Below are positions 20,174 through 39,939 of a stretch of DNA of 47,317 bases, in pieces. The first letter of the stretch is position 1, and each line of letters opens with the position of its first letter. This DNA comes from Calditrichia bacterium (GTDB taxonomy: Bacteria > Calditrichota > Calditrichia > RBG-13-44-9 > J075). Both the position numbers and the translations under genes were made by a program. The stretch covers positions 1 to 47,317 of the forward strand of contig JBOEGD010000017.1 in assembly GCA_050633245.1 (NCBI GenBank), written 5' to 3'. The notes below the pieces were generated by a model that made no database searches, was not told the origin of the DNA, and saw nothing but the letters and a program-made list of their open reading frames with translations.

Positions 20174-20213
20174 AATTCTACTTTCTCCCTGCACTAAATA
20201 TGGGGGGATTACC

Positions 20214-20946
20214 CTGATGCACGACCTCCTGTCGCGCTTCCGGCAACGTAAATAAAGACACGATCAATTATAGTATCATTTTTTACATTTACATCAAGAC
20301 TTTCGGAATTATATAAATTTTCGGCTAAAGCAATCGCATCCGTCATTATTCGTGAATTGTTTTTACCGTCAGTATACTCCGCAAATGTATCAGGTAGCTT
20401 AGCCCAAATAATACTGCTATCAGTTGAGTCCACATGATTAACAATCCCACTGCGAAACATACTATCTACGACACTTGGATGAGTAACTGCAGGAAGCACT
20501 TCGAGGTTGTTATTACTTACTTCCAGAAAATAATCTCGCATTGAACCATACGTTACAATTAAATGCGAGCCTGCATCAGGATGTATTCCAGGCACCTCAT
20601 TTGGATCGATATAAGTCCCCTTGGTAAAAAACATCTCCCAATAGTGATGATAACGGAATTTTTTCTCTATTTTATTTGGAGGTGGGTCGGGTAAGATAGC
20701 ATCCCATCCAATACTACCGCGAGCTAAATCGTTACTATCAGCATCTGCAAACTCTACAAAGAACATAGCAACACGAAGTGTCCTATCCTGATAAACAGGA
20801 GCACCATTCATTAATAAAATGGAATCGGCAGCAGTAAGGTGTTCCGAAAAATTACAAAAAATTTCCGATTCCTGAGCCTTAGCGATACTCATTAAACTTA
20901 CTACAATAAGAATTGCAAAAAATATTACTCTCTTTTCTTCCACCAT
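20214..20946 (-). pseudogene. N-terminal part of an M6/immune-inhibitor-A-like secreted metalloprotease, truncated by IS3
   Basis: GGAGG SD, signal peptide, VAMFFVEFAD...YWEMFF...YGSMRDYFLEVS. The stop codon lies in the IS TIR and no HExxH is reached. Confidence 0.75.
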
Positions 20947-20961
20947 AACTCCTCCGAAAAA

Positions 20962-22614: not shown

Positions 22615-22798
22615 GGGCCTCCTCCAAATGATAGAATAGATGTGAAAGTAAATGAGGGTTTGTGTATTACTATTTTTAAGATTACTCCTGTTTTTAATCA
22701 GCTAAGAAAAGCTGAAAAAGTCAAGGAGAAGTTTGATTCAATGATTCTTACCGCTATTGTATTACTTACTTAAAAAAATGGCAAAAGCATATCGTTTC

Positions 22799-22834
22799 TC
22801 ACACCCTGCAAACAACTAAATGTGCAGGGTGTGA
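22799..22834. other. 12-bp-stem hairpin after the M43 gene
   Basis: TCACACCCTGCA-N12-TGCAGGGTGTGA with no clear U-tract. Confidence 0.55.
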
Positions 22835-22849
22835 AGCTTGAAATAAAAA

Positions 22850-25800
22850 CTATTGAACGAGTGTCATCTTTTTTGTAGAGACAAAATCATTCGCAACAAG
22901 ACGATAAAGATAAACCCCGGATCCCACACGTTGCCCTGAACTATTTTTACCATCCCAGGTCGTTGTATAACGACCGGCCTCAAGCTGATTCGACATTAAT
23001 TTCTGAATAAGGTGGCCATTGATGTCAAAAACCGTCAACTGAACAAAACCTGTCTGTGGTATCTCAAACTCAATTTGAGTCGTCGGATTAAACGGGTTGG
23101 GGTAATTCTGGAAGAGGGCATAATCTGTTGGAATAGCGGACGTTTTTGTCGCAGCATCTGACGGTTTAACTACGGGTGTTGCAGCTACACGTGCTGTTTT
23201 ATCTTCCTCTACACCTTCATATATCTCAGTGTAGCGTGTATTATCCATTGAGACGAAGTGATTAAATCTGGCCTGAACAATCACATCACGGCCAACCATC
23301 TCCTCCAACGGTATAATTAAATTTAGCTCAAACGGATCTTGTTGACTGGCGTGAGCAATCAGATTAGCAACTGAGATGGAATGCAGTTCTTTTGTGTTAG
23401 ACGGGTTTGTTGGCTCAACCGCTTCAAAGACAATAACCTTTTCATTTAACCATTCCGGTTGGACCTGTCCCCTTTGCTCGAAGTCATGGCCATCGATTCT
23501 TAAACGTAATTTGAAAGCACGACTACTAGCTCTAAAGGGAGTTGTCTCAAAGAAGCTTTGCTTGTTTCGACTTGTTTTGGGGAAGTTTGTATAAGAGGTA
23601 TCCATTTCGACATCAAGAGTAATTGCGCCACCGAAAATGTCATTGGTTCGTGAAATGGAGATATTAGCTAAATCCAGGTCGACACGTCTATAATATCTCC
23701 CATCTCCATTAGTCTTGGCAGTAGGTGAGCTCGTTTTTGATGACGAATATATAGTTCTATTGCCGATAATATACGGAACCGTTGTTTGCTCGGTGGCCAG
23801 CAATCTGATAGCGGAGTTACCGGTATTAAGTGTTGGATGCTGCCCTGAAAAATTACCAAGCACATTTGGAGGAAGCCACCCACTTCCACTATTCACGTTG
23901 TAGAACACTTTATCGTCGATGTCTTCGTAGTATGATAATGCCAAATCTCCCGATGAAGCCTGGTAGGCAATTGTCGGCCTGCGGTAGGATTTATTAAAAG
24001 TTGAAAGCGTTGTTAAAACATCAGCATCATAATCGTAATAATAAACCGGGTTCTTTTGCGATTCATCGCCTTGCCAAACAATATGAATATCGCTGCCGTC
24101 TATTGTAATACTCGGATTTGCAGGATTGGAAATAGAGGAGTAGCCACTGGTCAGACTTTCCGAACTACTCCAGTTCCAAGAAGAGGAGCCATTGGCATCA
24201 CCGGTTATATAGAGGATCTCATCTTCAGAGTCATCTGCCCACACAATTTTGGTGAAATACGACGATGCGCCTCGGTCTATTGAAGGAGTATTTGAACTGA
24301 CGTTAGTTCCCGAAACGGAAAAGACAGAGCCCCAAACACTTGACTGGTTCACATCATGCGTCTGAATTGCGAGTCCGGAATAATGTTCCCAAACCAGCCA
24401 CACTTTATCTCCAGCCTCGGAATGAATTGCCGGATTAGTAGACGTATAGTTCTCATAAACGGTTGAACCTACTGCTTCCTCAGTCCAATTCGTAGACAAC
24501 GTTTTTGTTAAGTACCGTACCTTGTGACGCAAAAGCCCCAAGTACGAACCTTTCTCATCAAAGGCCACATGATAATAATTTGTTCCAAAAGCACTGGAGG
24601 TTGCAATGGTAGGATCTTGAACGGGATTTGCCGATGTACCTTGCCAAAGCTTTTCTTCGTTTGACCAGGTGGAACCACCATTTGTTGAGGTCGTGTAATA
24701 AATAGCATTGTTATCAACATAGACTGCATGCCAGTATCCCAGCCCGTCAACAACGACTTTGCGAGAGCTATTTCCGGAGGTTGCGGATACTTCATTCGAT
24801 GCCAGATGCCCCTTCATGTTGGCTGTTACGGTTGTATTTGTTCCAGTAAATTCTAATGAAGTAGTCGAAGCATTGGCATCGGTAAAGTTAACCCCGCCAG
24901 TTGACGTCCATTCATCGAGAAAATATGATGTTCCATTAATTGATTGGTCTTGCGCCCGAACAGAATAGAATACAGGGTCAACATTGGGATTAACGTTACG
25001 AAAAATACCACCACTACTTTCATCAAACTTTCCTGTTGGAATGAAAGGTAAAGTACTTTCATTTTTAAACTGATTGGGTTGATCATTGTTTACATTACTA
25101 ACATACCATGGATCTTTAAAACCGATTGTTCCACTATTTAGTGAGTTGGTGGAAAAAAAGTTCGTTTTTATTGTTGTTGGGTATAATTGGAAGAAGTTCG
25201 CGGTTTGGTCATCAGTTAGGTTGTTTATTACAAGGTTTGGAAGAGTTAATTTATAGTTGTTTAAGTCTTCGGACCATTCTTGGTGTTTAAAATCTCCATC
25301 AAAACGCTCCTGTTCGGGAGTAACTGAAACAGTCTGTCCCATAGCAGGAAGATATCCACCTGAGTTCAGGTTATTGGTATTCAACCCTTCTACAACTAAA
25401 ATATTTCCACCTGAATTTGCATTGTCAGCTATATTTGTAATCTGAACCCACTCAACACCGCGAAGAGAAGAACGATCAGCCCAAGGTAGATCCGCAAAAG
25501 TGCCTGTAGATATAGCGTTCATTACATTTTTTTGTCCTTGAGAGAATCTACTTCGGCAAGCTCCAGTAAACAAATTCGTTGTCATAAAATTATTTGCGTT
25601 GGGACGCCATTTTGCATCGTTGCCTGTCCAGGTCGGATCATCATAAGGATAAATAGTATCAAAAAAAACACCCGGGCGGTCGTAGTCACATTGTGCATTA
25701 TAATTTGACGTTTTTGGAGAGTTAGGTTCTGCTGGCGTATCTGGTATTAAATCTCCAGTAGTAAACCTGTCCGCATGATCGGGATGTCCAAATGGAGGTT

Positions 25801-26333
25801 CGGGGTCAACATTGTTTAAGTCTCGAACATTGGTATGGTACAATCCGAAAAAATGTCCAAATTCATGAACTAAAGTAGGCGTAAGTGCATTTTCATTTAC
25901 AACAACTACCGCTGGTCTCAGATTAATTACTCCTCTTAGAGTATCCCTTCCAGCAGGAAGTGTCGCATTTCCTCTATCATCTCCACTTGGTACAAAATAA
26001 AGATTTATCGCAGCTTCTGATGTTTTATAACGATTGTAAGTTCCCGTTAAATTGTCCATCATGCTTGGAGAAAAATCAACAAAGGAGGTATTTCTATGAT
26101 AAAGAATTTGTGCAACAAAAGAAGTTTAATGGATCAGCAAAACTTCCAAACGCATCAACGTGATTTAATTGTTCAATAGCTGGTTTAACAAGTGAACTAT
26201 CTAGTGCAGGATTATTGTCATCATATATTAGATGAACAATAACCCCTATTTGATCTGTTTGAGAATAAACTACGTTTAAAGAAGACATAAAATAAATTAA
26301 AACCCCAAAAACAATAAGAGATATACGCTTCAT
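22850..26333 (-). pseudogene. Secreted zinc metalloprotease (M43 pappalysin/ulilysin-like) + BNR-type propeller + FlgD-Ig tail, split by a 1-nt frameshift near 26117-26120
   Basis: HEFGHFFGLYHT zincin, GDLIPDTP, Met-turn NNFM. ORF 26094-26333 supplies the SD and signal peptide. Removing one base of the 4-nt run at 26117-26120 fuses the frames (..PLNFFVAQILYHRNTSFVDFSPSMMDN..). Confidence 0.8.
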
Positions 26334-26345
26334 ACCACCCTCCAA

Positions 26346-27425
26346 TTAATTATTTCTTACTCCGCTAACTATGACTAGCCTTTGAACTCCTTGTGAATAA
26401 TCTTGCCCAACAATAATTACCCGCTCGTCCTTTAAAGCTACTGATACAAATTCGTGATCTATGTTTTGTAATTCAGGATAGTTCCTCCAAGTTCTGCCAT
26501 TGAAATGCCAAACCATTCCGCGCTGGCCAACAATAAAGAGATCGTTGTGAGCTTGGCCACGGACTTTATTAGGAAAGGCTTCCAATTCGAATAGTTCCTG
26601 ACGTGGCGTAGAATTTTCCATAACGTTTTGCCAATAAATCTGTCTCCCCCCGACAATAATAAGAGAGTCATTGCCACAATACCATAAGCTCGATAGCTCA
26701 CCTTGATAGAAGTTACTATTGATTCCACCCTGTTCCCATACAATGCTCCAAGTTTCTTCCTTACCTTTTAGGAGAATGCTCGCGCCTCCTGTTGACTTTC
26801 TCCCACAAATCCAAATCGCTTCAGAATCAGGTGTACCGCCTACATCAGTTAAGCGAATATTTGTTAAGCGATCTGGTTCTTTCCAAATACTATTGCTATA
26901 AAAAAGCAGAAGCCCTTCTGCCCCAACGGAATAGATGTTTTGAAAAGAGTCACCCCAAATTGTAATAGCTATATCTAGAGAGTTGAGGTTACGTTGCCAA
27001 GAAAGTGGAGCATAAGCCCCCCCCTCCTGATGAAAAATGCTACCTGCGGCAAACCAAATATTAGTCTCATCTATTGCCCATACTCCCCGTGCACCAATTA
27101 AAGAATGTCCGGGTTCATCTTCTATTTGTTCAAAAGTCCAACCTGAACTTTTCCATCTCGCAAATCCATATGAAAAACTTTGCCCCAAAGAATCGCTAAA
27201 CGATAGTCTGCCTACAGCTAAAGCTTCCGATTCAGTTAAAAAAACTATATCGTTTAATGTTGTAGTTAGCGGCCCAAGCGTATCAATCTGCCAAACAAAA
27301 TTATGACTTGTTGTATCGACCTTGACATCAGGAGGTGGCGGAGGCGTTGTGTTTTTTGAACAGCTGCAGGCAACGAATATCAAAATCAAATAAAATGACA
27401 TAACAATATCACGCAACATCGGCAA
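26346..27425 (-). CDS. Lipoprotein with beta-propeller repeats (DTTSHNF.W family)
   Basis: Lipobox-like FVACSC, Pro-rich linker, repeats IWG....IY.VG..G...HFNG..W. Confidence 0.8.
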   Translation of the reverse strand: MPMLRDIVMSFYLILIFVACSCSKNTTPPPPPDVKVDTTSHNFVWQIDTLGPLTTTLNDIVFLTESEALAVGRLSFSDSLGQSFSYGFARWKSSGWTFEQIEDEPGHSLIGARGVWAIDETNIWFAAGSIFHQEGGAYAPLSWQRNLNSLDIAITIWGDSFQNIYSVGAEGLLLFYSNSIWKEPDRLTNIRLTDVGGTPDSEAIWICGRKSTGGASILLKGKEETWSIVWEQGGINSNFYQGELSSLWYCGNDSLIIVGGRQIYWQNVMENSTPRQELFELEAFPNKVRGQAHNDLFIVGQRGMVWHFNGRTWRNYPELQNIDHEFVSVALKDERVIIVGQDYSQGVQRLVIVSGVRNN

Positions 27426-27433
27426 AGCCCCTG

Positions 27434-27487
27434 TTGTTAATAGAGAATTGTTAATAGAGAATTGTTAATAGAGAATTGTTAATAGAG
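27434..27487. repeat. 14-bp tandem repeat, ~4 copies
   Basis: (TTGTTAATAGAGAA)x3 plus TTGTTAATAGAG, directly upstream of the lipoprotein start. Confidence 0.95.
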
Positions 27488-27526
27488 TGAATGAGGAGTA
27501 TTTAACACTACATATTTAATTGCTAA

Positions 27527-27560
27527 ATAAGCAAGAGGAATTTATAAGCAAGAGGAATTT
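27527..27560. repeat. 17-bp tandem duplication
   Basis: ATAAGCAAGAGGAATTT x2. Confidence 0.9.
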
Positions 27561-27745
27561 TTAGTAGCTGTTAACAACGACTACCAAGAAGTGGACTTCC
27601 CCAAGAAGGTAGGCAATCTGTTAGAGCTTTTGACTCTATTTTTCCAATTCGATCGATGTTAAATAGCCTACATGGATAGCGTATGTTACAGTATAATTAC
27701 ACTTCAGCGGAATTATACTTCAACTGTTGTGATTTTATCCAAATA

Positions 27746-28354
27746 TTAAACAAGTTCTAGATCCTTTCGATATGAAACAATCTCATCTGCCCCCTGCATT
27801 TTCTCAAAAATTCTATGCTGCCTTCGTCCGGAAATAGCCATATATCGGCTTGTACTTTCAAGTCGTTTATGTCCTAAATGAAACTGAACATCTTTTTGGG
27901 AAAATCCTGCATCCCCCATGTGCACGGCAATAGAATGCCTCAACACATGGGCATGGTGTAACTCTTTTGGGATACCCGCAATTGGAGCATACCGTTTGAT
28001 ATGCCAATCGATTGTCTTTCGGGAAATTGGATTCTTATTTCTGGATAAGAATAAAGGAATATTGAGGTCGCTTTCTATATCTCTAAGATAATATCCAAGC
28101 AAATAAGAAGTATCGGAGAAGAGCATATATTCCCTAGACTTACCATGTTTCAATCGCCAAATCTTAATTCTATTTCTCTCCCATTTTAGGTCTTTTAGCC
28201 TTAATAGGCCAACCTCTGAGGCTCGCAATCCATACTTATACATCATATCAAACATCACTCGATCACGTGGGCTTGTAATCTGTGCAAAAAGCCGTCTGAC
28301 TTGTTCTTGAGTCAGGTACTTCGTCTTTTCTTCAGTCTCTTGATAATGCCACAT
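27746..28354 (-). CDS. Small tyrosine recombinase, FimB/FimE-like (catalytic domain only)
   Basis: 202 aa; KYLTQEQV; GLRASE (R), RLKHG (K), HVLRHS (HxxR), LGH (H), TSRY (Y). No N-terminal arm or core-binding domain. Confidence 0.92.
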   Translation of the reverse strand: MWHYQETEEKTKYLTQEQVRRLFAQITSPRDRVMFDMMYKYGLRASEVGLLRLKDLKWERNRIKIWRLKHGKSREYMLFSDTSYLLGYYLRDIESDLNIPLFLSRNKNPISRKTIDWHIKRYAPIAGIPKELHHAHVLRHSIAVHMGDAGFSQKDVQFHLGHKRLESTSRYMAISGRRQHRIFEKMQGADEIVSYRKDLELV

Positions 28355-28361
28355 AGTCTTC

Positions 28362-28395
28362 CCAACTAGACATTTTAACTAAAGTGTCCAGTTCA
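28362..28395. other. Putative recombination site A (13-8-13)
   Basis: CCAACTAGACATT-TTAACTAA-AGTGTCCAGTTCA; 30/34 identical to the reverse complement of site B; 7 bp from the recombinase ATG. Confidence 0.85.
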
Positions 28396-28397
28396 AG

Positions 28398-28425
28398 ACC
28401 TTAGCATTATCAGAGATAAAGTCAA
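28398..28425 (-). promoter_or_regulatory. Putative sigma70-type promoter of the recombinase, inside the cassette
   Basis: Minus strand TTGACT-16 nt-TAAGGT with extended -10 TGc. The predicted start falls in the inner arm of site A. Confidence 0.5.
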
Positions 28426-28458
28426 TACTCACAGTAATAAATGCAGGGGGTATCTGCG

Positions 28459-29661
28459 ATGAAGAGAGTTTCAATCATAGGTTTAACTATTATCAGCCTG
28501 GTTCTTTTTCCAAGCTGTAGTAAGGACGGTAGCAGCAGTTCAAACGGAAATATTACCTTTACCCCCTCCCCTGCAAAAGGAGTGAGGTATCAAAACATCC
28601 GTCTTCAACTTTCCGAGGAAATACTCTCCGCAACCTGGAGTTCAAGCAATCCAGATATTGCCATTTACATCCGAAACACTTCCTCCTGGGGAGAATTCTC
28701 TTGTAATATGGAAGGAACTGTCACAATCCGTGCAGTTGGAGAAGATAAGTCTGCTGAGACCCAATTGGAAGTCATTCCCAATGGCACTTGGGAAGCCGTG
28801 CCACTGGTATTATCTGGTGCGTTAGACAACCTTAGTGATGTTCAATTTTTTGATGAAATGGCCGGTTGGGCTTGCGGCGGACTAAATGGCCATGCCTATT
28901 ACACTTCAGACGGAGGACAAACCTGGCAGGATCGTCTACCTGCAAGTTTAAATGCCGAATGGATTCATAACGTGTTTTTCCTTAATCAAAGCACCGGTTG
29001 GCTAACAGAGCTATCTGAGGATATATACAAGACAACTGATTCCGGGCTTACCTGGAACCTGCTCCCAAGCATCGGTAGCGGATTAATTAATGACATTTGC
29101 TTTCTCGACGAAAATATCGGAGTCATCGCAATGTCAGGTAGCCAAGATGGTATTCTAAGAACAACCAATGGAGGTAATACATGGACTCAGATCATTGCGG
29201 GTGCATTTTCAAAAATCTACTTCCTCGATTCAGAATATGGATGGGCTATTGAGTCTCGTAAAAATTACAGAACAACAGACGGTGGAGCCACATGGATCGA
29301 AGGCCCCAGAATTCATCCAAGTCCAAGAAGTGCATCACAACTTCATTTTGAAGACCGTAATTCTGGTTGGTTCATAAAATCGGGGAAAATATATACCACT
29401 ACAGACGGCGGTATTACGTATGAGGAAATGTCCTTAGATGGTTTCTCTCCATCTGTTAGCGGTGTATCCGGAATACTTAAACTGAATGACTCCGTCGGAT
29501 GGGCTTTGGTCGGTAACCAATATTATCAAACTGCAGATGGGTTTAAAACGGCGGCCTATCAGTTGTTTAACCATACAACGTCAACTCAAGGAATGGGTTT
29601 TGCCAGAAGTAGACCATATGTGTTTACACAGCGTGGGATTTTGTTTAATGATCGGTATTAA
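28459..29661 (+). CDS. Lipoprotein with Ig-like (Big_2-like) domain and YCF48/BNR propeller
   Basis: MKRVSIIGLTIISLVLFPSC lipobox (ATG 28459; the track starts at 28441); TWSSSNPDIA; repeated F.D...GW and T.DGG.TW. Confidence 0.85.
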   Translation: MKRVSIIGLTIISLVLFPSCSKDGSSSSNGNITFTPSPAKGVRYQNIRLQLSEEILSATWSSSNPDIAIYIRNTSSWGEFSCNMEGTVTIRAVGEDKSAETQLEVIPNGTWEAVPLVLSGALDNLSDVQFFDEMAGWACGGLNGHAYYTSDGGQTWQDRLPASLNAEWIHNVFFLNQSTGWLTELSEDIYKTTDSGLTWNLLPSIGSGLINDICFLDENIGVIAMSGSQDGILRTTNGGNTWTQIIAGAFSKIYFLDSEYGWAIESRKNYRTTDGGATWIEGPRIHPSPRSASQLHFEDRNSGWFIKSGKIYTTTDGGITYEEMSLDGFSPSVSGVSGILKLNDSVGWALVGNQYYQTADGFKTAAYQLFNHTTSTQGMGFARSRPYVFTQRGILFNDRY

Positions 29662-29690
29662 AGTTGATTAACCATATGGGGACAATAGTA

Positions 29691-29726
29691 TTGACATTTC
29701 AACTAAAAGGGTATAGTTTTACTATA
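29691..29726 (+). promoter_or_regulatory. hicBA promoter with overlapping palindromic operator
   Basis: TTGACA-17-TAGTTT; palindrome TATAGT-TTT-ACTATA at 29712-29726. Confidence 0.6.
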
Positions 29727-29743
29727 GAAGTAAGTCAATACTT

Positions 29744-29977
29744 ATGGAGATCAACTTGAAAGACTTTGCCTATACCGTTGTGTTTGAGCCTGCCGAAGAA
29801 GGAGGCTACCTTGCCCATGTACCGGCTTTGAACGGTATTACCACAGAAGGTGAGACTTTGGAAGAAGCCAAGAATATGGCTATCGATGCGATACGAGGTT
29901 ATATCGCCACTCTGATACAGGAAGGGTTACCAATTCCTTTTGAGCATTCAACTGAGAAGTTAGCTGTTTCTATTTAA
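29744..29977 (+). CDS. hicB: HicB-family antitoxin (short form)
   Basis: YTVVFEPAEEGGYLAHVPALNGITTEGETLEEA...DAI...L...G.PIP. Confidence 0.92.
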   Translation: MEINLKDFAYTVVFEPAEEGGYLAHVPALNGITTEGETLEEAKNMAIDAIRGYIATLIQEGLPIPFEHSTEKLAVSI

Positions 29978-30210
29978 TGTCTCCTCAACTACCCAATATT
30001 ACTTCGAAACAAATGATCCGGGCGCTTAAGCGTGCCGGATTTGTCTTTAAACGTCAATCAGGCAGTCATCAAATGTATATCCACCCTGACCGGCCTGGAA
30101 ACATTGTTGTTGTTCCGTTTCATAATCGGGATTTGAAGAAAGGGACTTTGAAGAGCATTTTGAGGCAGGCCGGGTTGTCGGTGGAGGAGTTGATAGATAT
30201 CCTGACATAA
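29977..30210 (+). CDS. hicA: HicA-family mRNA interferase toxin
   Basis: IRALKRAGF...RQSGSH......VVVPFHNRDLKKGTLKSILRQAG; TAATG coupling with hicB. Confidence 0.93.
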   Translation: MSPQLPNITSKQMIRALKRAGFVFKRQSGSHQMYIHPDRPGNIVVVPFHNRDLKKGTLKSILRQAGLSVEELIDILT

Positions 30211-30494
30211 TATCAAAAGTTACTTCCAAAAGATAGCACCAAGAATGTAAACAAACGATGGTTTTAATCACAGCCAGTTAATATGCATTCTCAAGTTCGC
30301 TAGAATTGAATTTTATTCTTCAAAAAATAGGACAGTAAGTACTTTACAAAATCGAGATTCGTTCAATAATCCCTCAACTCTAAAACTTCTAACCTCAACC
30401 AACAATCAAGCATAAACACCTGTTTTGAATATACTGAACAAATTGGGTATGTCATCAAAACCCGATGTTAGTTTGGTATTGCTCGTCAGAAGTC

Positions 30495-31367
30495 TTACAC
30501 TTGCTCCAGTGTTTTGGCAATTTCATCCGAAATAACAACAAATCCTTTTTTTGTTGGGTGAAGTTCATTTGCCCACCAAGTTTTATATTTTTTATCGTTG
30601 GGTAATTTTCCTCTAAGGTTTACATACGTTACCAGTTCAAACCCACGTATTCTATTTAGTGTTGCAAGCATGTCATTAAACTGATTGATGAGTTCTTCAA
30701 CAAGATCGGTTCGGTACTGAAGCGGCTTATCAGGGTATCCTTTTTTTCTAAACCCAGGTTGAAGCCAAGGACCAGGCAATATCCATCCACCTCCCCAGAA
30801 GCCCCTCCCATCGGGCACCGCAAAATCATACCCATGAACTAGAATCGGGCATTTAGTTCCAAAATGCTTTTCACATAATGTATTGATTCTGCTTATCAAA
30901 GTTATATAGCAATATCTCAGTCGCTTATTGATAATTGCGGACATAATTTCCGGACTGAGTCCGGGTTTAGGTGACTTTGCATGATTCAATAAAATAGTAA
31001 ACTCGTCTCCCGCAATATCATTGCCACCAGCTGACAACAGAACTGCTTTGGGTGATTCATCTCGCCTAAGTAATCGTTCTAAAATCCGAATAAATCCTTT
31101 AATCTGAGATGAATCATACGCCATAGATTCAGCTTTATCGCCCTTATTAGCGGAATGTTCTATTCTATAATTATGTTTATCTTCGAGAATATCAAGCACA
31201 TCAGAACCCGGATAATCAAACCACGAATCCCCTTCTGCAATTAGAATCCCTTTGGGCTCATCATTACGAGAAATTTTTTTTCGAATCCCGGCACGATTTT
31301 TCCAATGTTTTTCTGCCAGATCTTTTCCCATAATAATCGCATCATTGAGGCTTTCATTTTTTGACAA
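30495..31367 (-). CDS. SGNH/GDSL-family hydrolase
   Basis: AEGDSWF (block I), SAGGND (block III), HGYD, ANELHP (block V); GGGAG SD before TTG. Confidence 0.85.
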   Translation of the reverse strand: MSKNESLNDAIIMGKDLAEKHWKNRAGIRKKISRNDEPKGILIAEGDSWFDYPGSDVLDILEDKHNYRIEHSANKGDKAESMAYDSSQIKGFIRILERLLRRDESPKAVLLSAGGNDIAGDEFTILLNHAKSPKPGLSPEIMSAIINKRLRYCYITLISRINTLCEKHFGTKCPILVHGYDFAVPDGRGFWGGGWILPGPWLQPGFRKKGYPDKPLQYRTDLVEELINQFNDMLATLNRIRGFELVTYVNLRGKLPNDKKYKTWWANELHPTKKGFVVISDEIAKTLEQV

Positions 31368-31395
31368 TGCAAAACTCCCTTAGTTTATAGTTAAG

Positions 31396-31602
31396 CTAAG
31401 TCGTATGACACTCATTTGAACAATAGTAACAGCCATTCGTCTGTTTATAATATTTCTTTGCTTCTTTTACAGCTTGTTGACAATTTGAAAAGTCACCCAA
31501 ATAGATTCTGTTATGCGTTTCTGGCATAAAAGAACAACCCGTTGTATGAACTTCATGATCTCCGTTAGATTGAGCATTTTTGTTAACGTAATATCTAGCC
31601 AT
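31396..31602 (-). CDS. Small Cys/His-rich hypothetical protein (68 aa)
   Basis: GGAGA SD; YYVN...Q.NGDHEVH...C...LG.F..C..AV..AK...NGCYYC...CH pattern, likely metal-binding. Confidence 0.8.
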   Translation of the reverse strand: MARYYVNKNAQSNGDHEVHTTGCSFMPETHNRIYLGDFSNCQQAVKEAKKYYKQTNGCYYCSNECHTT

Positions 31603-32007
31603 GCTTTTTCTCCATAGTTAAAGGATTTACGTACCTAAATTTGATTAGTGATAAAGAATATGATAGTAAAAACAAGATTAAATAATCCATATCAACCACA
31701 TGAATGATAAATACAATCATTCAGTGGACGGCGGATTACACGGTCAAATTTCGGGGAGTATTTCTATTTAATGAAAAAAAATTTGGAAATGCAATATTGT
31801 GAAAAGAATAACTCATCCTCAATAGCATTTTAGAACATAGGATAAATCTGAAATACGATGAAATGGTTATTTGTCTAATTTTTTGAGGGTTAGGATGAAA
31901 TAAAAAGGCAGTAATATTAAAATCTAATCCAAGAGCACATTTTTTTGTAACTAGAAATTCAAGGTATGCAAAATGACTAATAATTTAGCTACAAATATCC
32001 GATAGTC

Positions 32008-32041
32008 TGAACTGGACACTTTAGTTAAAGTGTCCAGTTCA
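32008..32041. other. Putative recombination site B (perfect 13-8-13 palindrome)
   Basis: TGAACTGGACACT-TTAGTTAA-AGTGTCCAGTTCA; symmetry extends over 32006-32043; the spacer is the reverse complement of that of site A. Confidence 0.88.
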
Positions 32042-32505
32042 GATAATATAAATATTAACCTCCTCAATAATCAACGAAAATATCCACATTATATAGGCGT
32101 CTTTCATCAACAAAAACAGTCAATTTATTTATACACTCTTTTTGCCTCACCGACCGGAGTATTAAAATTGTCTATGACCATCTATCTAAGGCGGTACGTT
32201 AACGGGACGTGAATCCGCATCTATAACCGGCACAATAAACAACCTCAGGATTCGGATCAGGATTGGGCAGCGTATCAGTCAGAAGAACAGCAAGCCAGAC
32301 CGACCGGTCATGAAAAAGATATTTTCATAGGAAGCTCCTCTTGATAGAGTAAAAAATGAATTGAGCTTCAAATTATTTTTTCGAGGTAAACGATTTTTAC
32401 ATAAACGTCAATGCTAGGAAGAATCGAGGTAAAAAGCACTTTTGCCAGCAATAAATTTGAGTTAATTTTTCAGCTCACTCACAAAAGGGAAATGGGAGAA
32501 TTGAA

Positions 32506-33072
32506 ATGGCAAAAGAAGACCTTGGGCCAATCTATAGTGAACTTTTGGGTTATATGAGTCAATCACCAGAACCCCAATCAATGACTGATTTTTTAGCAGA
32601 TAAGGCCGGAGAATCAGTATGGAAACAATTAAACAAAGTAATAGAAATGCTGGAGACTGAGTTAGAGATTGACCTTAGTAGATTTAAAATCGTTTCATAT
32701 CATGGTACAGGATCAACAACTTATGTATATCTTTATTCCTACCGGCAAAAATTAGGTGGTTTAATTGCCTTTTTACATAGAAAATACTTTAAAAGCGAAC
32801 CGCCGCCCTTCTCGGATATGCCTCCTACAACTATCATAAACCAAACCCAAAGCCAGCATGTTGACATTCAGCTAATGCTAGATCTCCGAGGAGCAATTGA
32901 AAAGGCACTTCCGCAGACAAAGAAAGGTAGCCCTGAGTACGGATTTCTGACAAAAATAAAAGAAACGATGAGCACTGCGGATACTGGTATAAGTGTGATG
33001 AGCAAAGTCCTTAGAGCCGCAAACGGAAGTGGACTATCACTCGAAAAAGTAAAAGACCTTCTCGGTCTCTGA
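32506..33072 (+). CDS. Hypothetical protein
   Basis: 188-aa ORF with GGGAGA SD; no recognised motif. Confidence 0.7.
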   Translation: MAKEDLGPIYSELLGYMSQSPEPQSMTDFLADKAGESVWKQLNKVIEMLETELEIDLSRFKIVSYHGTGSTTYVYLYSYRQKLGGLIAFLHRKYFKSEPPPFSDMPPTTIINQTQSQHVDIQLMLDLRGAIEKALPQTKKGSPEYGFLTKIKETMSTADTGISVMSKVLRAANGSGLSLEKVKDLLGL

Positions 33073-33251
33073 CCTGCAGAATAAACATGAAAGCGCTTTC
33101 GCTCAGGAAAACTGTTCAGTATCTTTTGATGTAACATACAAAAAATCTCCCCAAACATATTTTGCAAAGGTCATGAAGGATCTTTGGATTTCCGCTGTAT
33201 TTGTGCTTACCCTAATACAGCTGTAGCGATTTGTCCTATCCATAATGAGGA

Positions 33252-33669
33252 GTGAATAATTATGAGGAGCCGGAAAATCCGGTAGTTAAGTTTTATGAAA
33301 TGAGAAAATGCGGATTTTACAAAAGAGGTGAGTATAAACCGCTGTTAGGCGATATCGGTGAAATATTAGAGAACCTTAATAAATGGGTAAAATCCAAAAG
33401 GAATAAATCACTTGGAACTTGTCCATTCAAGCCGATTCCAAATGAAGATCTGCGATATGCCCTTCGTACCGCTATTGAACATGACGCTGGAATCGGTGAT
33501 TGCGTTATTTCCACCTTTAATAACACTGCTTTTTATTGGAGGGCCAGTAATTTACTTAAATCCGAGCGCTTCTGTAAATAGCCGGTCAAGTCCAAAATTT
33601 TTAGAAATTACTTATAGAGCCATATTATGTTTTTATCACAAACCACTAATTTATAATAGCTACAGGTGA
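33252..33669 (+). pseudogene. Probable decayed or truncated hypothetical gene
   Basis: The 109-aa ORF 33252-33581 overlaps a second frame (..GGPVIYLNPSASVN..) that runs to the helicase start, suggesting a frameshift. Confidence 0.4.
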
Positions 33670-36600
33670 GAATGTCAGAGCAATCAATGCTACCGACTCC
33701 AGAGATACCATCGAATCCACGTTCTGAGATTGTTAACTCCTACCTTTCGACAATCGAGGAAAGTTTTCGTTCTGGGCGTCCTCAAATCAAACTTATCAAT
33801 TACGGAACGGGTTCGGGCAAAACCCATCAATTTTTTGAAGCGGTCTGTGAATCGATCAGAAAACATGAGAATGTTCATATTATAGGTATATATGTAGCTC
33901 CACTTAGGGAACATTTGCAGGCCCCTGCTACGACATCAGAGAATAAAGATATTCCTTTCTATACTGTCAATTCATTGCAAATGAAGACTACTGATACATT
34001 GTTTAAAAAGTACACTTCATGGTTAGATAAAATTCTTGGGAATAGAAAATTCTGGAATGATAAACTAATAAATTCTCCAAATAGTGGTTTTGAAGAAGCT
34101 AGGTCATCTTTGGCAAGAGTCCCAAGAATCATTGGGCAATTAGAGTTTATGAAAAGAACAGATTTTGGAGATGAGGAATTCAGAGAGAAATTTCGAATTA
34201 AGGCAATACGTGAGCTGAATAATTTGATAGAAAAATTTTTGGACTTTCTTATCAAAAATCTGCCTGATGAGACCACATGGCCTGATGAATGTTTAAAGCT
34301 CACTAAAGTATTTTATCCTCTCTATCTATTGCGGGAAAAGCCTGGGATCATAATGTTAACATATGACAAATTTGAGACCAAAATTCCATTCTTCATTCAC
34401 AATGGTTTTAAATGGATTAAAAAAAATGATCATCTAGATCAATTTATTCGACAACAGTCTGATGGAAACAAAAGGTTCATACTCGCTTTTGACGAACAGG
34501 AAGATGGTTATCAAATTGTTTTAAATCGCAAAATAGACATTATCTCTCCGCGGATGCTTGCAATAAATAATGCTCTCTCTTCAATCAGCCGTGAATTTTC
34601 TATTCTATTTTCAGAGAAAGAAAAGGTATACAGAGAGTTCCTGGAATATGCAGACTTGAATCCAGGTGTATATCATGAGTTAGCAACACACCTGGAGAAA
34701 GAAAAGTCTATTGACGACAGAATATCGAAATATGTAAACGTCTTTCGAGAGCTTACTCAAAGTGAAGGAAATTCCATAGATTTTTTGAGGCAAGTGAGTC
34801 AAATCAGCAAACATATATCCGCTTCAATTAATGATGTTTTAGATGTTTGTGAGACTCTTGGGGATCGTAATCCAGTAGATTTAGACTTTGGTATGCTTTC
34901 CAGAGTATTTTCAAAATTTGAAAATAATCGGAGTTTGTTAATCCCTCGGCGACTTTACTCGAAAATCGCCGATGAGTTAATGAGCATTTTTTCGCACAAC
35001 AATTTGTTCATTTACAATATTGAACCTTTAAGAAGTTTGTTTTTAGCAAAATCAGCAGGTGGACATGTTTACATCACAGATGAACCTACTGCGGATAGCG
35101 CTTCTGTCGCTGAGTTAATTTATGCAATATTCGTGATACGCTTGCAAATTGAACTTATAATTGAATTTTTGTCTAACGTCCTTAACGCAGAAGATAGTCA
35201 GTCTCGGTCATTAGACATTTGGTCAAAACAAATAACGAAAATCCAAAAAGCTAGTGAAGAAATATCAACTGAGACTAGACCTCCCAAATATGTAAATCGA
35301 GAATATGTCTACAAAAGCTATAAGTCAATTATTAACATAATGGAGATTTCGCGCTATCAGCATCCTACCAATGACTTAGTTAATCACACATTTCGGGAAG
35401 TATCGATTGGTAGCACAGCAATCTTAACCTCCCCTGAACATAAGCTGCACTCAATATTAGAAAATGGCAGTAATGTTCTATTTCTAATCTCCGCAACGGG
35501 GGGAATCACTGGTGACCTCAGCACTAGTTACGATATGAGGTACTTGGAGGATATTTTAAGAGATGATTCGGGTAAGAGCTCATTTAACCAAATGATTGAA
35601 ACAGAGTTGCAACTATGTGAGCAAATCAGAAAATACCGTAAATCAACGAAGCATTTATCTGTAGTATTTTTTGATGCTAACCAATCTACTTACCCAAACG
35701 TACGTACTGAACTAGTTGCCGAGCAATTTTATAATGGATTGCTAAATGGATTTATTGAGTCAATGACTGGGGATGGGAGGTGGTTTGGGGCCTATAAAAA
35801 GCATGAATTACAAAACTTTTTTCGTTTTTTATTCTTGCTGTTTGAGGACGACACTATTCAAAACATGATCGCTTTCACTCAAACCCTGCGTTGGATAAAG
35901 GAGTCAATAAAATATTGTCGCTTAAGGCGTCATGCCAATTTCAAGTTTGAACCTTCACCAGACCATCCAAACATTTGCTATTTAAAGTTAGAACATAAGA
36001 GCTTTGCGAGTAACCTACGAGTTAAGGTAATCTTGTATGATGCCTCTTTTAACGCAGAGTACTATTCGGATGATTCTGGAAAAACCTATCTGGATGAATT
36101 AGTTGAGTGTGATGGGGAAAAGATCTTATTTGTTTCCGCCTACCAATCTGCCGCTAAAGGATTGAATCCAATTATTAAGTATAAGGGTGATGCTCAGAAA
36201 GATTTTGATGCGCTTGCTTTGCTAATGGACAGCTACTATACCGCTATGGGCCCCTTACTCAATCAGCCAAAGGATGCTGGAAAAGCAACCACACTTTACC
36301 ATTTTGCCTTGATGAAAAATATTGTCCATTTAGGTGATACCAGTGTCGAAATTAAGGACTTTAATAAATACATAAACAATCCTGATGCAGAATCTTTTCG
36401 TGTATTACAACATCAGATTTTACTTGGTAAGGGGATTCTGCAAGCAATTGGGAGAACGGAGCGGAGAGATTTTCCGAATCAAGTTTCAAAGATATTTATT
36501 AATGAAGAGACGCGCAAAAATTTGGTCAATTTTTATAGATACCTTAACAGAAATGAACCCAACGAAATACGAAAACTTTCAGTAAATAACTACGAAGTAT

Positions 36601-37619
36601 ATCTCGCACTACAGAAAGACGAAAAGAGCCGGTGTATCCCTAAATATGAGGAACACGAGTACGATGAGGTGGCTTCATATTATGCTCTACAGGAATTTAG
36701 GGAGAAAATGCTTGAAGAGATTCAACACTTCCATGAAGGCAAATCCAACGCTAAAATTATTGATGCTTGGAAATTGTTGCGGAATCCCGTTGTCTTCAGT
36801 GATCCTGCAGCCTTTCTAAAAAAAATCGAAGCATCAAAGTTATTTCCTGCTGACTTCATCGAATCATTATTTTACTGCCGCCCAAGCCAACTAAGATTTA
36901 CACCTTATTTAGCAACGATAACGGATGGTGGAAGAAAGATTGATATTATAAGCGATAGCGTGAATGGGGACAAAACATATAAATATATGCAGAGACTCTA
37001 CCCCAATTTTCTCAAAACAGCGTCCGCAGGCTTTGATACTTATGGAGAAGAATTACAACATCTCAATCAGTCATCCGACGCAATTGTTAGATTATACAGG
37101 AAACTCATTCCAGAACCAGATATATTTAACACGTACATTCCACGACCGCACTTTTTTTACGATGTTTTGCTCCCTTCACTTGCAGAAAACTTTGTCGAAG
37201 GATGGATCAAAAACGAAATATTCGAAGGCAATGAAGATAGAACTATAAAATCTTTATACAAATTTGAACAGGTACGGAATTTTAATAAATACAATAAACT
37301 GTATGAGCTATTTGATTTGTATTATACAAAAGAGTCTACACTTTTTTGTATTGATGTAAAAGCATGGAGTAGAATTAGCGGGAACAGGCTCTCCTCTAAA
37401 GCTCTGAAAAAATCTCAAAAAAAGCTCGATAAAATCGCTACCGACTATCCAGCTTTTGGTAATGTCCGGGGCCTACTCCTGAACTTATACGCGCCAATTG
37501 AAACAAATCTGCAGCACTCACCAAATTTGTTTTCCGGCAATTTGATCTATACAGATAGTTCTCGCTGTCCAATTGCTTCTACCATTCTAAAAGATTTCTT
37601 GTTTTGTAAGGAGATATGA
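33666..37619 (+). CDS. SF2 helicase fused to C-terminal PD-(D/E)xK nuclease, DdmD-like
   Basis: Walker A GTGSGKT, YVAPLRE (Ia), LTYDK, AFDEQE (II), ISATGG (III), SAYQSAAKGLN (V), QAIGRTER (VI); C-terminal ELFDLY...IDVKAW. 1317 aa. Confidence 0.8.
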   Translation: MRMSEQSMLPTPEIPSNPRSEIVNSYLSTIEESFRSGRPQIKLINYGTGSGKTHQFFEAVCESIRKHENVHIIGIYVAPLREHLQAPATTSENKDIPFYTVNSLQMKTTDTLFKKYTSWLDKILGNRKFWNDKLINSPNSGFEEARSSLARVPRIIGQLEFMKRTDFGDEEFREKFRIKAIRELNNLIEKFLDFLIKNLPDETTWPDECLKLTKVFYPLYLLREKPGIIMLTYDKFETKIPFFIHNGFKWIKKNDHLDQFIRQQSDGNKRFILAFDEQEDGYQIVLNRKIDIISPRMLAINNALSSISREFSILFSEKEKVYREFLEYADLNPGVYHELATHLEKEKSIDDRISKYVNVFRELTQSEGNSIDFLRQVSQISKHISASINDVLDVCETLGDRNPVDLDFGMLSRVFSKFENNRSLLIPRRLYSKIADELMSIFSHNNLFIYNIEPLRSLFLAKSAGGHVYITDEPTADSASVAELIYAIFVIRLQIELIIEFLSNVLNAEDSQSRSLDIWSKQITKIQKASEEISTETRPPKYVNREYVYKSYKSIINIMEISRYQHPTNDLVNHTFREVSIGSTAILTSPEHKLHSILENGSNVLFLISATGGITGDLSTSYDMRYLEDILRDDSGKSSFNQMIETELQLCEQIRKYRKSTKHLSVVFFDANQSTYPNVRTELVAEQFYNGLLNGFIESMTGDGRWFGAYKKHELQNFFRFLFLLFEDDTIQNMIAFTQTLRWIKESIKYCRLRRHANFKFEPSPDHPNICYLKLEHKSFASNLRVKVILYDASFNAEYYSDDSGKTYLDELVECDGEKILFVSAYQSAAKGLNPIIKYKGDAQKDFDALALLMDSYYTAMGPLLNQPKDAGKATTLYHFALMKNIVHLGDTSVEIKDFNKYINNPDAESFRVLQHQILLGKGILQAIGRTERRDFPNQVSKIFINEETRKNLVNFYRYLNRNEPNEIRKLSVNNYEVYLALQKDEKSRCIPKYEEHEYDEVASYYALQEFREKMLEEIQHFHEGKSNAKIIDAWKLLRNPVVFSDPAAFLKKIEASKLFPADFIESLFYCRPSQLRFTPYLATITDGGRKIDIISDSVNGDKTYKYMQRLYPNFLKTASAGFDTYGEELQHLNQSSDAIVRLYRKLIPEPDIFNTYIPRPHFFYDVLLPSLAENFVEGWIKNEIFEGNEDRTIKSLYKFEQVRNFNKYNKLYELFDLYYTKESTLFCIDVKAWSRISGNRLSSKALKKSQKKLDKIATDYPAFGNVRGLLLNLYAPIETNLQHSPNLFSGNLIYTDSSRCPIASTILKDFLFCKEI

Positions 37620-37620
37620 A

Positions 37621-39921
37621 ATGTTTAGCCTGAACCATACCCCCTCAAGCACATCTCGAACGAATCAACTCATAATTAATGAATCGACATCAGAAGTTGC
37701 TGAAAAACTCGTTCAATATCTTTTCAAAAAAGGTAAAGGGATAGAACATTTTAGCATTAATGGTTGGTTTGCTAAAGAGGAATACTCGAAAAAAAACTTT
37801 TATATAATGCGTCATCAACGCATAAAAGATGAAATTAGAAGACGACTCGCTGAATACGGCGAAGCTCCTATTCTTTCTGAAATTCAATATTTCTTTTCTC
37901 GTTCGAACGGTCAAAACCTTGTTTTTTATTTATCACCCAGTCGGCAACATTCGGGCTGGAAAAAACTCTTCTCTGATCAATGGCAAAAAAGTAATCGTGA
38001 AAGAATTTTTAATTTGATTTTTAAGGTCCATCTTATTTCTCAGGAACTGCCTGTAGAGACACTAAATGGGTTCGAAGAATTACTCTTTATACATTCAGCA
38101 AAGTCAAATAAGAAAGGAGACGTTCTATACGTTTGGGGACAAAATTTATTTGTGAATTATAACCACTTTAACGTATTGACGTTAACTCTCAACCGGAAAT
38201 TTCGCAAGTTTTTGTCATCGGACACATATGGTAGTTTGGATGAAGATGACCTCGGTGAACTTATGGTTTTCGAAAGCAGGAAATACCATCACCATCGAGA
38301 CGAGGATGCAAGGCGTAAAAATGATATTTTCTTTATGCGCTTTGAGTCGGGAGATGAAGAATACAAGAAATTCAAAAAAACTCAGCTCTACTACTACCAA
38401 ACCCTCATGACCAAACTGCAAGAGTTCTTAAGTGAGTGTAAAATAGCCTTCGATGCACTTCCTTATACCGCTACTCATTTCTTGGAAAACCCATTTATCA
38501 AGAATATCGAGTCCGTTGAATCCCTGAAGGTTATTAATAATACTGGATTCGACCTTACAATTGAAGATCAGCAATTTCTTCAAAACTTTTTATCACTCCA
38601 GGGTGTAGTGCAGGTAACCTTACATAATGCGGGCAAAAGTATTAGTAGCTATGAGAAAATGGAGGATGAAGATGAAGGGTGCTGGAAAATCACTGAATTA
38701 GTGCCTTGGGATGAAGTTGAGTTGAACCAGCAGACAAATTACTTGGTATTAAATCGACTACTGGATGAAGAGATTGGATCAATGGCATATCAAAAAGAAG
38801 ATGGCCTATGGTATCCGTCGAATAAGTTAAAGAACGAACAGACTGTTGACTTTTACACAAGAATAAAGAGCAAATATAATTACCTTAAGACTGGGAAATT
38901 TATTAGTACACAGGGAGTTAATTTAGATAAGTTTTTAACCGTTGGAAGCACAAAGTCATCCTTGCCAGTCTTATCTTTTAGTGAACCCCAAATCCGTCAA
39001 GATGACTTTTACAACGATATAAAACCTTTGGCTAAAGGTAAACATTTAAGTGTTAGCGAATCGATTGCCAGCTATTCCAGAGAACAATCCGATCCTGACA
39101 AATGGAATATGTTTCTCAAGAAACATAAGATTAAGATTTCCCCTGAGTATCAGAAAGTGCTTATAGAGCTTGGTATCAAAAATTGGATTCGTGAGAGTCT
39201 CTGTAATCATGTAGCAGGCTTACCTATTTCGACTCAAACTTTCGATGAAAAAAGCTTTTACTCAATCTATGTGCGAAGTCCACGAAAGCAAGATACCCGG
39301 GCTGTTGCCGTAGAATTTGTTTACAAAGATGGTGCGATCTTTATTAGACAAGTCATAAGTGAGTTAAGGCAAATTCAGGAAAAGTTTAAGTTTCTAAAAA
39401 CTCGAAGAAACTCGGACACATTAGTTGACAACCAGCAATATTTTGTAGATGCTACAGACAAATTGTATGTTAGCTGCTACACCGATGACTATTTCACACC
39501 TACCTTGATTGGCAGAGATGGTATTTTGGACGAGATGAAGAGTGGAACATTAAAAGTGAACAGACAGGTCCGGGATAATAACAGTAGCAGAATTCTCCCC
39601 CTTGTCACTCACTATAACGAAGAAATGAGGCCAATTAATCGAATTCGAAAACTGATTTGCTTTGACTTAGCCAATGATTCTTTTATCCAGTATTTTGTCC
39701 CGCCTGGTAAGAGCATTGAAGCGCGGGTTAAAAAAGGATTTAGAGTTTATCACATGATCGGAAAATCGTTCACCAATGAGCCTATTTTAACCTCTGAACT
39801 CATAGAGCACCCAATCACAAGTTTACACTTTAATACGCTGACCCACAACATTTTAAGAATTAGTGACAATAGTCAGTCGTCTCTTCTACAAAAAGTGGCA
39901 AGAGTGCTTGTTGAGAATTGA
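37621..39921 (+). CDS. Argonaute-like protein, DdmE-like (MID-type guide pocket, probably no slicer activity)
   Basis: 766 aa coupled to the helicase (AAGGAG SD, 1-nt gap). FYTRIK...ISTQGVN...KVLIELGIK resembles the Ago MID Y-K-Q-K motif; no recognisable DEDX tetrad. Confidence 0.65.
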   Translation: MFSLNHTPSSTSRTNQLIINESTSEVAEKLVQYLFKKGKGIEHFSINGWFAKEEYSKKNFYIMRHQRIKDEIRRRLAEYGEAPILSEIQYFFSRSNGQNLVFYLSPSRQHSGWKKLFSDQWQKSNRERIFNLIFKVHLISQELPVETLNGFEELLFIHSAKSNKKGDVLYVWGQNLFVNYNHFNVLTLTLNRKFRKFLSSDTYGSLDEDDLGELMVFESRKYHHHRDEDARRKNDIFFMRFESGDEEYKKFKKTQLYYYQTLMTKLQEFLSECKIAFDALPYTATHFLENPFIKNIESVESLKVINNTGFDLTIEDQQFLQNFLSLQGVVQVTLHNAGKSISSYEKMEDEDEGCWKITELVPWDEVELNQQTNYLVLNRLLDEEIGSMAYQKEDGLWYPSNKLKNEQTVDFYTRIKSKYNYLKTGKFISTQGVNLDKFLTVGSTKSSLPVLSFSEPQIRQDDFYNDIKPLAKGKHLSVSESIASYSREQSDPDKWNMFLKKHKIKISPEYQKVLIELGIKNWIRESLCNHVAGLPISTQTFDEKSFYSIYVRSPRKQDTRAVAVEFVYKDGAIFIRQVISELRQIQEKFKFLKTRRNSDTLVDNQQYFVDATDKLYVSCYTDDYFTPTLIGRDGILDEMKSGTLKVNRQVRDNNSSRILPLVTHYNEEMRPINRIRKLICFDLANDSFIQYFVPPGKSIEARVKKGFRVYHMIGKSFTNEPILTSELIEHPITSLHFNTLTHNILRISDNSQSSLLQKVARVLVEN

Positions 39922-39939
39922 TATAGTAAATGAAGTGTT

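Follow-up and report, generated by a model that had tools for sequence, protein, structure and literature searches.

Several described recombination systems resemble parts of the locus analysed here. In the fim switch of Escherichia coli, which FimB and FimE operate, a 314-bp promoter segment lies between 9-bp repeats, and host factors are required. The G segment of phage Mu and the C segment of phage P1, served by Gin and Cin, respectively, are kb-sized, bounded by ~34-bp inverted sites and hold converging gene sets, and the invertase gene lies immediately beyond the segment. In Acinetobacter plasmids, pdif modules are toxin-antitoxin or resistance modules flanked by inverted Xer-type sites. 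Cre is a two-domain protein of 343 aa, and TnpI has a core-binding domain and is longer than the enzyme considered below. According to work on Tn4430 (PMC2847244), the orientation of the centre decides between deletion and inversion at a TnpI core without accessory motifs, while in the complete IRS the DR1/DR2 accessory motifs enforce resolution. For TnpI cores with a symmetric centre, both products are reported. Our subject is a 47,317-nucleotide stretch (the window) of a Calditrichia bacterium genome (contig JBOEGD010000017.1 of assembly GCA_050633245.1), in which a gene for a 202-aa mini tyrosine recombinase lies beside one of two inverted palindromic sites, A and B, that enclose five genes. 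An earlier note on this DNA had proposed a DNA-inversion switch with loxP-like sites. Sites A and B are a statistically secure pair of inverted core sites beside an intact recombinase gene, and we favour, with moderate confidence, the view that the recombinase inverts the five-gene cassette between them.

Site B (32006-32043) was found by inverted-repeat search and script check to be a perfect 18-2-18 palindrome or, when read as a core, a 13-6-13 site with the centre TAGTTA. Its 34-bp part described earlier (32008-32041) is TGAACTGGACACT-TTAGTTAA-AGTGTCCAGTTCA. The arms are fully complementary, as the earlier note had it, and the palindrome is even longer. The sole asymmetric bases are the central GT (32024-32025). 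Site A (28362-28395) is a core site with the centre TAACTA, a perfect cassette-side arm and a degenerate recombinase-side arm that matches its own partner arm at 9/13 positions. A script check confirmed that A matches the reverse complement of B at 30/34 positions with the spacer reversed, against 28/34 in the direct sense; the gain of two matches is the central dinucleotide (AC in A, GT in B). The centres agree at 6/6 or 8/8 positions when inverted and at 4/6 or 6/8 when direct. The two sites are separated by 3,612 bp (28396-32007), and A ends 7 bp from the recombinase ATG (28354). Read by eye, its degenerate arm overlaps GGGAAG, probably the ribosome-binding stretch.

Three exact copies of the 13-nt arm are present in the 6,345,459-bp genome, all of them at A or B; allowing one mismatch adds six genome matches away from the two sites. 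The expected number of 34-mers matching at >=30/34 positions genome-wide is ~1.7e-7. The geometry from which inversion had been predicted is thus upheld, with centres that are exact reverse complements and sites unique to the locus, while inversion itself is predicted from sequence. The description of the sites as loxP-like and 13-8-13, in contrast, captured a surface likeness. That parse is arbitrary, since the "8-bp spacer" begins and ends with three bases that continue the palindrome. Many palindromes of relatives share the form seen in the window (GAACTGCCCAGAA-cagtta-TTTTGAGCAGTTC, compared with GAACTGGACACTT-tagtta-AAGTGTCCAGTTC for B), and the natural parse is therefore 13-6-13; the core, 13-6-13 or 18-2-18, comes nearer to those of Xer/dif and TnpI/IRS, its TAGTTA centre is like spacers of distant homologues, and the enzyme has no core-binding domain.

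Other roles for the palindromes were considered. Site B was rejected as a terminator, having an 18-bp stem and a 2-nt loop without a T-run and being absent from the list of the promoter scan. A role as HicB operator was also rejected: the HicB protein has no DNA-binding domain match and the palindromes are not upstream of hicB. An Rfam E-value scan of 26000-34000 scored the site B hairpin as a microRNA (E 0.021; 28.6 bits, gathering threshold 90) and gave one chance match, nothing credible. No tRNA genes were found in the window.

The recombinase gene (27746-28354, minus strand) encodes a tyrosine recombinase that consists of the catalytic domain only. The protein matches PF00589 over residues 12-174 (E 3.4e-30; 105.5 bits, cut-off 27.1), and alignment A1, made of the window recombinase and 25 homologues (26 sequences), showed the catalytic R44, K69, H136, R139, H162 and Y171 all to be present. 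Five of them (R44, K69, H136, H162, Y171) are invariant in 26/26 sequences; position 139 is R or K. The earlier description of an intact 202-aa recombinase next to site A was therefore correct. The open frame is at most 210 aa long, leaving no room for a hidden N-terminal or core-binding domain. Among NCBIfam models XerA scored best (E 1.1e-33, 117 bits against a cut-off of 220) and covered model positions 90-256 only; XerD reached 92 and XerC 88 bits, and every Xer equivalog cut-off (XerC, XerD, XerA, XerS) was missed. The FimB/E-type invertase models NF007370 and NF007371 were also below cut-off (68.3 against 221 bits and 57.3 against 222 bits, respectively), though they align full length on the recombinase (residues 8-190 and 10-193). 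The nearest solved structures are Xer proteins (PDB 4a8e, 1a0p, 5hxy), and genes of enterobacterial plasmids annotated "tyrosine-type DNA invertase" encode proteins 32-36% identical to the recombinase. By these comparisons the enzyme has a FimB/E-like build and an Xer-like sequence and is a member of neither equivalog. Its closest homologues, P0002 and P0003, are 62-64% identical (at the protein level, outside the DNA locus set used below); their genes lie on contigs of 95 kb and 10 kb, respectively. Two ordinary Xer-like genes (306-311 aa) lie elsewhere in the genome. Within the phylum, homologues at E <=1e-25 were found in 1/86 genomes, namely the source genome, and the locus is therefore accessory.

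How does this locus compare with the systems named above? It shares with FimB/FimE of the E. coli fimS switch a recombinase of ~200 aa made of the catalytic domain only, a gene beside the putatively invertible DNA and an expected regulatory effect with coding sequence unchanged. It differs in having 34-38-bp near-perfect palindromes around 3.6 kb and five genes; a short segment of the fim kind is not found in the window, whereas relatives of the recombinase have invertible-type segments of 125-185 bp (L129, L138). With TnpI/IRS of Tn4430 it has in common symmetrical arms, few asymmetric central bases and a core beside the recombinase gene, but the window has no accessory repeats and no Tn3 transposase among the ORFs (open reading frames) scanned. 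FimB/E-type invertases and the TnpI/IRS core are close precedents for a recombinase and site pairing that the earlier note had not recognised from any known system. Like Cre/loxP and Flp/FRT, the locus has a single recombinase and a 34-bp inverted-arm site whose asymmetric centre sets the orientation, inverted sites giving inversion. The window enzyme, unlike Cre, has no core-binding domain and hence no two-domain DNA clamp; 2/8 "spacer" bases are asymmetric in B, and relatives indicate a 6-bp overlap region. The arm-6-arm core and the Xer catalytic domain, the best sequence match, recall Xer/dif systems (including XerS/difSL and XerH/difH, single-recombinase modules that carry the site next to the gene), in which the enzyme has the N-terminal domain lacking here and for which two inverted sites would be useless in dimer resolution. 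The Gin and Cin systems share with it a kb-sized segment, ~34-bp inverted sites, convergent genes and a recombinase outside; Gin and Cin, however, are serine recombinases, depend on an enhancer and on Fis and switch C-terminal coding exons, whereas the window has a tyrosine recombinase and no ORF across a site. By analogy, the system most likely works like FimB/E or core-only TnpI while being a member of none of the named families.

Inversion in silico regenerated A and B exactly and fused no ORF. No ORF of >=30 aa was gained or lost except three frames of 31-38 aa overlapping the sites. The ORFs being unchanged by inversion, any effect of a switch would be regulatory. In the proposed mechanism, recombinase dimers would bind the two core-only sites, 13-nt arms around 6-bp TAGTTA/TAACTA, and recombine them. 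Since A and B carry their two asymmetric central bases in opposite orientation, synapsis with matched overlaps would, by the usual overlap-homology rule, invert the segment 28396-32007, with no excision. No extra arm at <=3 mismatches was found within 300 bp of A or B; without such accessory half-sites nothing would impose the selectivity for resolution that the Tn4430 study attributes to DR1/DR2 (PMC2847244). We infer both the recombination of A with B in the cell and all of the promoter roles that follow.

With A so close to the ATG, there is room for the recombinase promoter only in the site or within the invertible DNA. The promoter of the minus-strand surface-protein array downstream of the recombinase is probably also in invertible DNA. 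A flip would exchange the 63-bp divergent control region at the A end (28396-28458, from site A to the lipoprotein gene) for the AT-rich non-coding leader of 405 bp at the B end (31603-32007; GC content 0.33, no convincing ORF). In the 63-bp region a candidate promoter facing the recombinase was picked out by eye: TTGACT (28425-28420), a 16-nt gap and TAAGGT (28403-28398). The promoter scan passed over it, as its -10 hexamer matches at 3/6 positions only. The scan did report a candidate promoter ATGAAA-17-TAAAAT at 31895-31923, pointing outward through B, and another, TTGATT-18-TATATT, just outside B on the minus strand (32045-32074), facing into the segment. The segment lies between two gene arrays that face outward, the surface-protein array headed by the recombinase and a right-hand array (from 32506 on), and its own two operons converge. 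A flip would therefore make these arrays trade control regions and would bring the other cargo operon next to the right-hand flank. Enzyme bound at site A, over the ribosome-binding stretch, may also auto-repress its own gene.

Homologues of the recombinase were collected from genome, metagenome and viral collections, giving at least 223 loci; 187 of these were analysed by script (all 159 genome and metagenome loci and the best 28 of 64 viral ones, the other 36 viral loci being left out). Strong palindromes (arms >=12/13, spacer 4-10) were present <=160 bp upstream of the ATG in 17/177 loci, compared with 7/957 control windows. An orientation-neutral screen of 155 loci revealed 10 with a palindrome immediately behind the recombinase stop codon and a matching site that precedes the ATG by 54-66 bp. 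The spacers of 10/10 such loci match at 6/6 positions inverted and at 2-4/6 direct, and seven different spacers occur. These inverted 10-6-10 sites flank the ~600-bp recombinase gene (L022, L032, L035, L037, L040, L042, L054, L066, L069, L098); three more such loci were recognised by eye (L026, L039, L043), and the hosts of gene-flanking loci are Acidobacteriota and one Gemmatimonadota genome. In these loci the recombinase gene itself appears to flip. A different arrangement, an inverted pair upstream of the gene with the sites ~150 bp apart, was found at L104, L112, L129, L113 and L143, with three spacer types. L138 and L141 have window-like sites (AGTTAGACATT-TTAAnnAA-...) in a pair ~185 bp apart. 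The centres are reverse-complementary between partners in each case: ttaaccaa/ttggttaa in L138, ttaatcaa/ttgattaa in L141 and ttaactaa/ttagttaa in the window. A matched overlap kept through sequence change is what recombination between partners requires; an operator would not need such matching. The other 11 rows of the 18-row clade gave no pair at >=18/24, three having <200 bp of upstream sequence. The paired palindromes that the earlier note had proposed to look for near homologues are therefore there in the 10 screened loci and seven further ones, but not near L014 or L015, and many members look resolvase-like (see below).

A quick tree was built from 156 rows (153 of the 187 loci and three sequences from the source genome), with SH-like approximate likelihood-ratio test (SH-aLRT) support only. 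Rows were dropped when the match started after query residue 15, the length was outside 165-215 aa, no stop was present or the sequence contained X. A split with SH-aLRT 95 separated the window, L014 and the inverting lineages (49 rows) from 107 rows that hold all nine Tn3-linked loci and all nine tree rows with a core plus a lone extra arm. The placement of the window enzyme with the inverting lineages is supportive, not decisive. At L129 an Ig-domain surface protein is encoded directly after the recombinase; this and the type IX secretion system (T9SS)-sorted proteins of the window would fit surface-protein phase variation.

Some observations on individual homologues stand by themselves. Among 31 short contigs inspected for ends in a partner site, L104 was the only clear case: position 1 of this 1,066-bp metagenome contig falls inside the distal-site spacer of its inverted pair. 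L123 starts 14 nt from its own site. Both are anecdotal; the L104 start is the assembler behaviour that would be expected if both orientations were present. At L147 (260-1395) two sites 1.1 kb apart surround an AbiEii-type toxin-antitoxin pair beside a frameshifted mini-recombinase, and at L121 (601-3437) a mini-recombinase lies directly upstream of the type I gene hsdM; in both loci the partner-site spacers differ. A homologue is present on a complete 13.9-kb Clostridium perfringens plasmid, whose sequence is too AT-rich for an informative palindrome search. A scan of viral contigs with a degenerate core pattern gave nine loci, none with a recombinase nearby, and these were discarded as chance palindromes.

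A number of findings weigh against inversion at the window locus. Promoter-like sites are not above chance, 14 being found where 16.4 are expected from shuffles, and each cargo operon may have its own promoter. The window sits on a long branch of the quick tree. All-versus-all BLAST of the flanks of the 187 loci, searched for segments in opposite orientation, yielded collinear pairs only, from few informative pairs of which just one came from an inverting group. L014 (55% identical) and L015, the closest homologues in the genome collection, each have a single half-site-like motif and no palindrome like those of the window. L014 had been tried as a twin architecture and was rejected: between its 46-bp inverted repeats, which are 3.2 kb apart and contain no window-type motif, lies a serine recombinase that may own them. 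The source genome carries two further mini-recombinase genes (contigs C2 and C20), each with one full palindrome (AGTTCACACTT-6-AAGTGTGAACT) and a half-site downstream of a good promoter, and no partner for either palindrome was found anywhere in the genome. Finally, many family members look, from their sequence context, like resolvases rather than invertases. A lone extra arm lies 70-165 bp from the core in 11/34 loci with an upstream palindrome of >=11/13. L052 and L053 (9768-14260) are identical copies of a minimal 4.5-kb Tn3-family transposon in one Acetobacteraceae chromosome, made of 40-bp terminal repeats, a 987-aa TnpA, a 171-aa mini tyrosine recombinase, presumed to be the resolvase, and an upstream palindrome. 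The large ORF of L052 is the Tn3 transposase TnpA (PF01526, E 1.2e-133), its terminal repeats measure 38-40 bp and the palindrome is upstream of the mini-recombinase. One clade lies within such minimal Tn3-family transposons: terminal repeats of 28-40 bp around the recombinase plus ~3.5-4.3 kb were found at L018, L023, L028, L048, L052 and L053.

These last findings bear on the strongest competing explanation, that the recombinase belongs to a resolution or stability module of an integrated island reaching the large serine recombinase gene at 42585-44231, with any inversion incidental. The mini-recombinase and A would then be a multimer or cointegrate resolvase plus an autoregulatory operator, and B a second or orphan site. 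Service of family members in minimal Tn3-family transposons such as L052 speaks for it, and the core with lone accessory arm in 11/34 strong-palindrome loci resembles the TnpI IRS (PMC2847244). The accessory nature of the locus and a right flank formed by a defence-type island with a large serine recombinase would also suit it. So would the nearby hicAB, toxin-antitoxin pairs beside Tn3 resolution modules being reported in PMC7157771. At the window, however, there are no accessory arms near A or B, and no transposase (PF01526) was found among the 19 window ORFs scanned at 20-47 kb. No remnant of a decayed second recombinase lies beside B: tblastn of the window returned only the recombinase gene itself. 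A flawless 38-bp palindrome is unexpected in a relic, the A and B spacers are exactly complementary, and the tree sets the enzyme apart from the Tn3-linked clade. We regard this explanation as unlikely, though not negligibly so; if it holds, the locus is ordinary.

A pdif-like mobile module, in which the 3.6-kb cassette would be exchanged between site-bearing replicons by the dedicated recombinase next door, is in our estimate improbable. The cargo is indeed wholly different among similarly laid-out loci (the AbiEii-type pair at L147, hicAB and accessory genes in the window). But neither a second copy of the sites or cassette in the genome nor a related cassette elsewhere was found, the partner spacers of L121 and L147 mismatch, and the canonical mechanism does not allow a circle to be excised at an inverted pair. 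Slightly less probable still is that A and B are operators only, through which the recombinase or another dimeric regulator would repress its own gene from A and, from B, either the Cys/His-SGNH operon or the right flank: the overlap of A with the ribosome-binding stretch, the family-wide enrichment of upstream palindromes and the single full site plus half-site of the C2 and C20 paralogues are in keeping with this, but operators do not need a conserved, exactly reverse-complementary spacer, spacers co-vary between partner sites in homologues, all catalytic residues are kept, and B is 406 bp (inside the segment) and 465 bp (outside) from the nearest start codons.

Inversion, the reading we favour, would move five convergent genes, the identities of which agree with the earlier description (ORF listing and family searches). 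On the plus strand, the first (28441-29661, with a likely true start at 28459) encodes a lipoprotein with a BNR/Ycf48-like beta-propeller (PF14870, E 1.7e-11). It belongs to a large paralogue family in the phylum, with matches in 62/86 genomes. It is followed by hicB (29744-29977; PF15919, E 4.2e-8) and hicA (29977-30210; PF07927, E 2.5e-24), which together form a toxin-antitoxin pair. On the minus strand lie genes for an SGNH/GDSL hydrolase (30495-31367; PF00657, E 3.8e-6) and for a 68-aa Cys/His-rich protein (31396-31602). The latter belongs to a conserved family, has no Pfam or NCBIfam match and falls with Atlas clusters of 68-aa hypothetical proteins (score 0.96). The Atlas neighbours of the hydrolase are SGNH proteins, some with caspase or trypsin domain fusions, and its predicted fold resembles (TM-score 0.73-0.77) SGNH domains that other bacteria join to caspase- or trypsin-like proteases. 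The predicted fold hints that the hydrolase may be a conflict-system effector.

The co-directional array downstream of the recombinase (20209-27425, minus strand) encodes a 359-aa lipoprotein, T9SS-sorted proteins of 1070 and 550 aa and a 245-aa protein. The 320 bp that separate the stop codon of the recombinase gene from the gene for the 359-aa lipoprotein hold two perfect tandem repeats, of a 14-bp unit (~4 copies, 27434-27487) and of a 17-bp unit (two copies, 27527-27560). Homologues of the 359-aa protein in the loci of seven relatives have no mini-recombinase within 1.5 kb. The C2 and C20 mini-recombinases are 27% identical to that of the window and 97% to each other. They precede paralogues of the window array, with identities of 54-57% for the 550-aa protein, 49% for the 359-aa protein and 58% for the 245-aa protein. 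One genome thus holds three paralogous clusters of the order site, mini-recombinase, lipoprotein/T9SS genes: on C2 (L262, 4520-8158), on C20 (L263, 7270-14413) and in the window (20209-28395). The site-plus-recombinase unit of C2 and C20 (686 bp) is 87% identical at the DNA level, while the neighbouring 551/552-aa proteins are 54% identical, which suggests recent copying or gene conversion of that unit alone.

To the right of B lies a low-GC, defence-type island (32506-44626), its content listed by family search. It includes a PDC-S06-type AAA_13 ATPase (40332-42542, E 2e-243), a 109-aa fragment resembling PDC-M18A (33252-33581), two large proteins of 1317 and 766 aa without family match and the large serine recombinase on the minus strand. 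Two features of the L014 locus also deserve mention. Its inner 46-bp inverted pair encloses genes for a response regulator, the serine recombinase and a peroxiredoxin. A 113-bp inverted repeat that contains a hairpin (2496-2608 and 6928-7040; 87% identity) immediately precedes two genes that point outward, for a carbonic-anhydrase-like protein and a lipoprotein, and may be a shared leader or regulatory RNA.

In the full-text literature searched, supplements excluded, we found no account of the enzyme group, none of invertases that combine a lone catalytic domain with such sites and none of tyrosine recombinase genes that invert themselves. We put forward, tentatively and as the less probable of our two proposals, that these enzymes form an undescribed class of minimal invertases, of the "one protein, one palindromic site" type. 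Two central bases could be enough to set the orientation of a site, and the class would be deployed in three ways: self-flipping of the recombinase gene (Acidobacteriota type), inversion of 125-185-bp control segments and inversion of a five-gene cassette. If such a class exists, the co-varying centres would provide naturally orthogonal recombinase and site pairs ~40% smaller than Cre, and a flip in the window would re-wire several operons at once, the cassette lying between a surface-protein array and a defence island. The comparative data suggest, at any rate, a sizeable uncharacterised group of catalytic-domain-only invertases, including apparently self-flipping genes, and the spacer variety of the group could yield small orthogonal tools. 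The locus also touches the mechanistic question of how a tyrosine recombinase without a core-binding domain recognises a 13-nt arm. For the organism itself, should A and B recombine, a 202-aa enzyme and a 34-38-bp site would make up a compact, self-contained inversion system in a poorly studied lineage. The result would be phase variation of several genes where T9SS surface-protein genes meet a defence island, a type described mainly in gut bacteria and pathogens.

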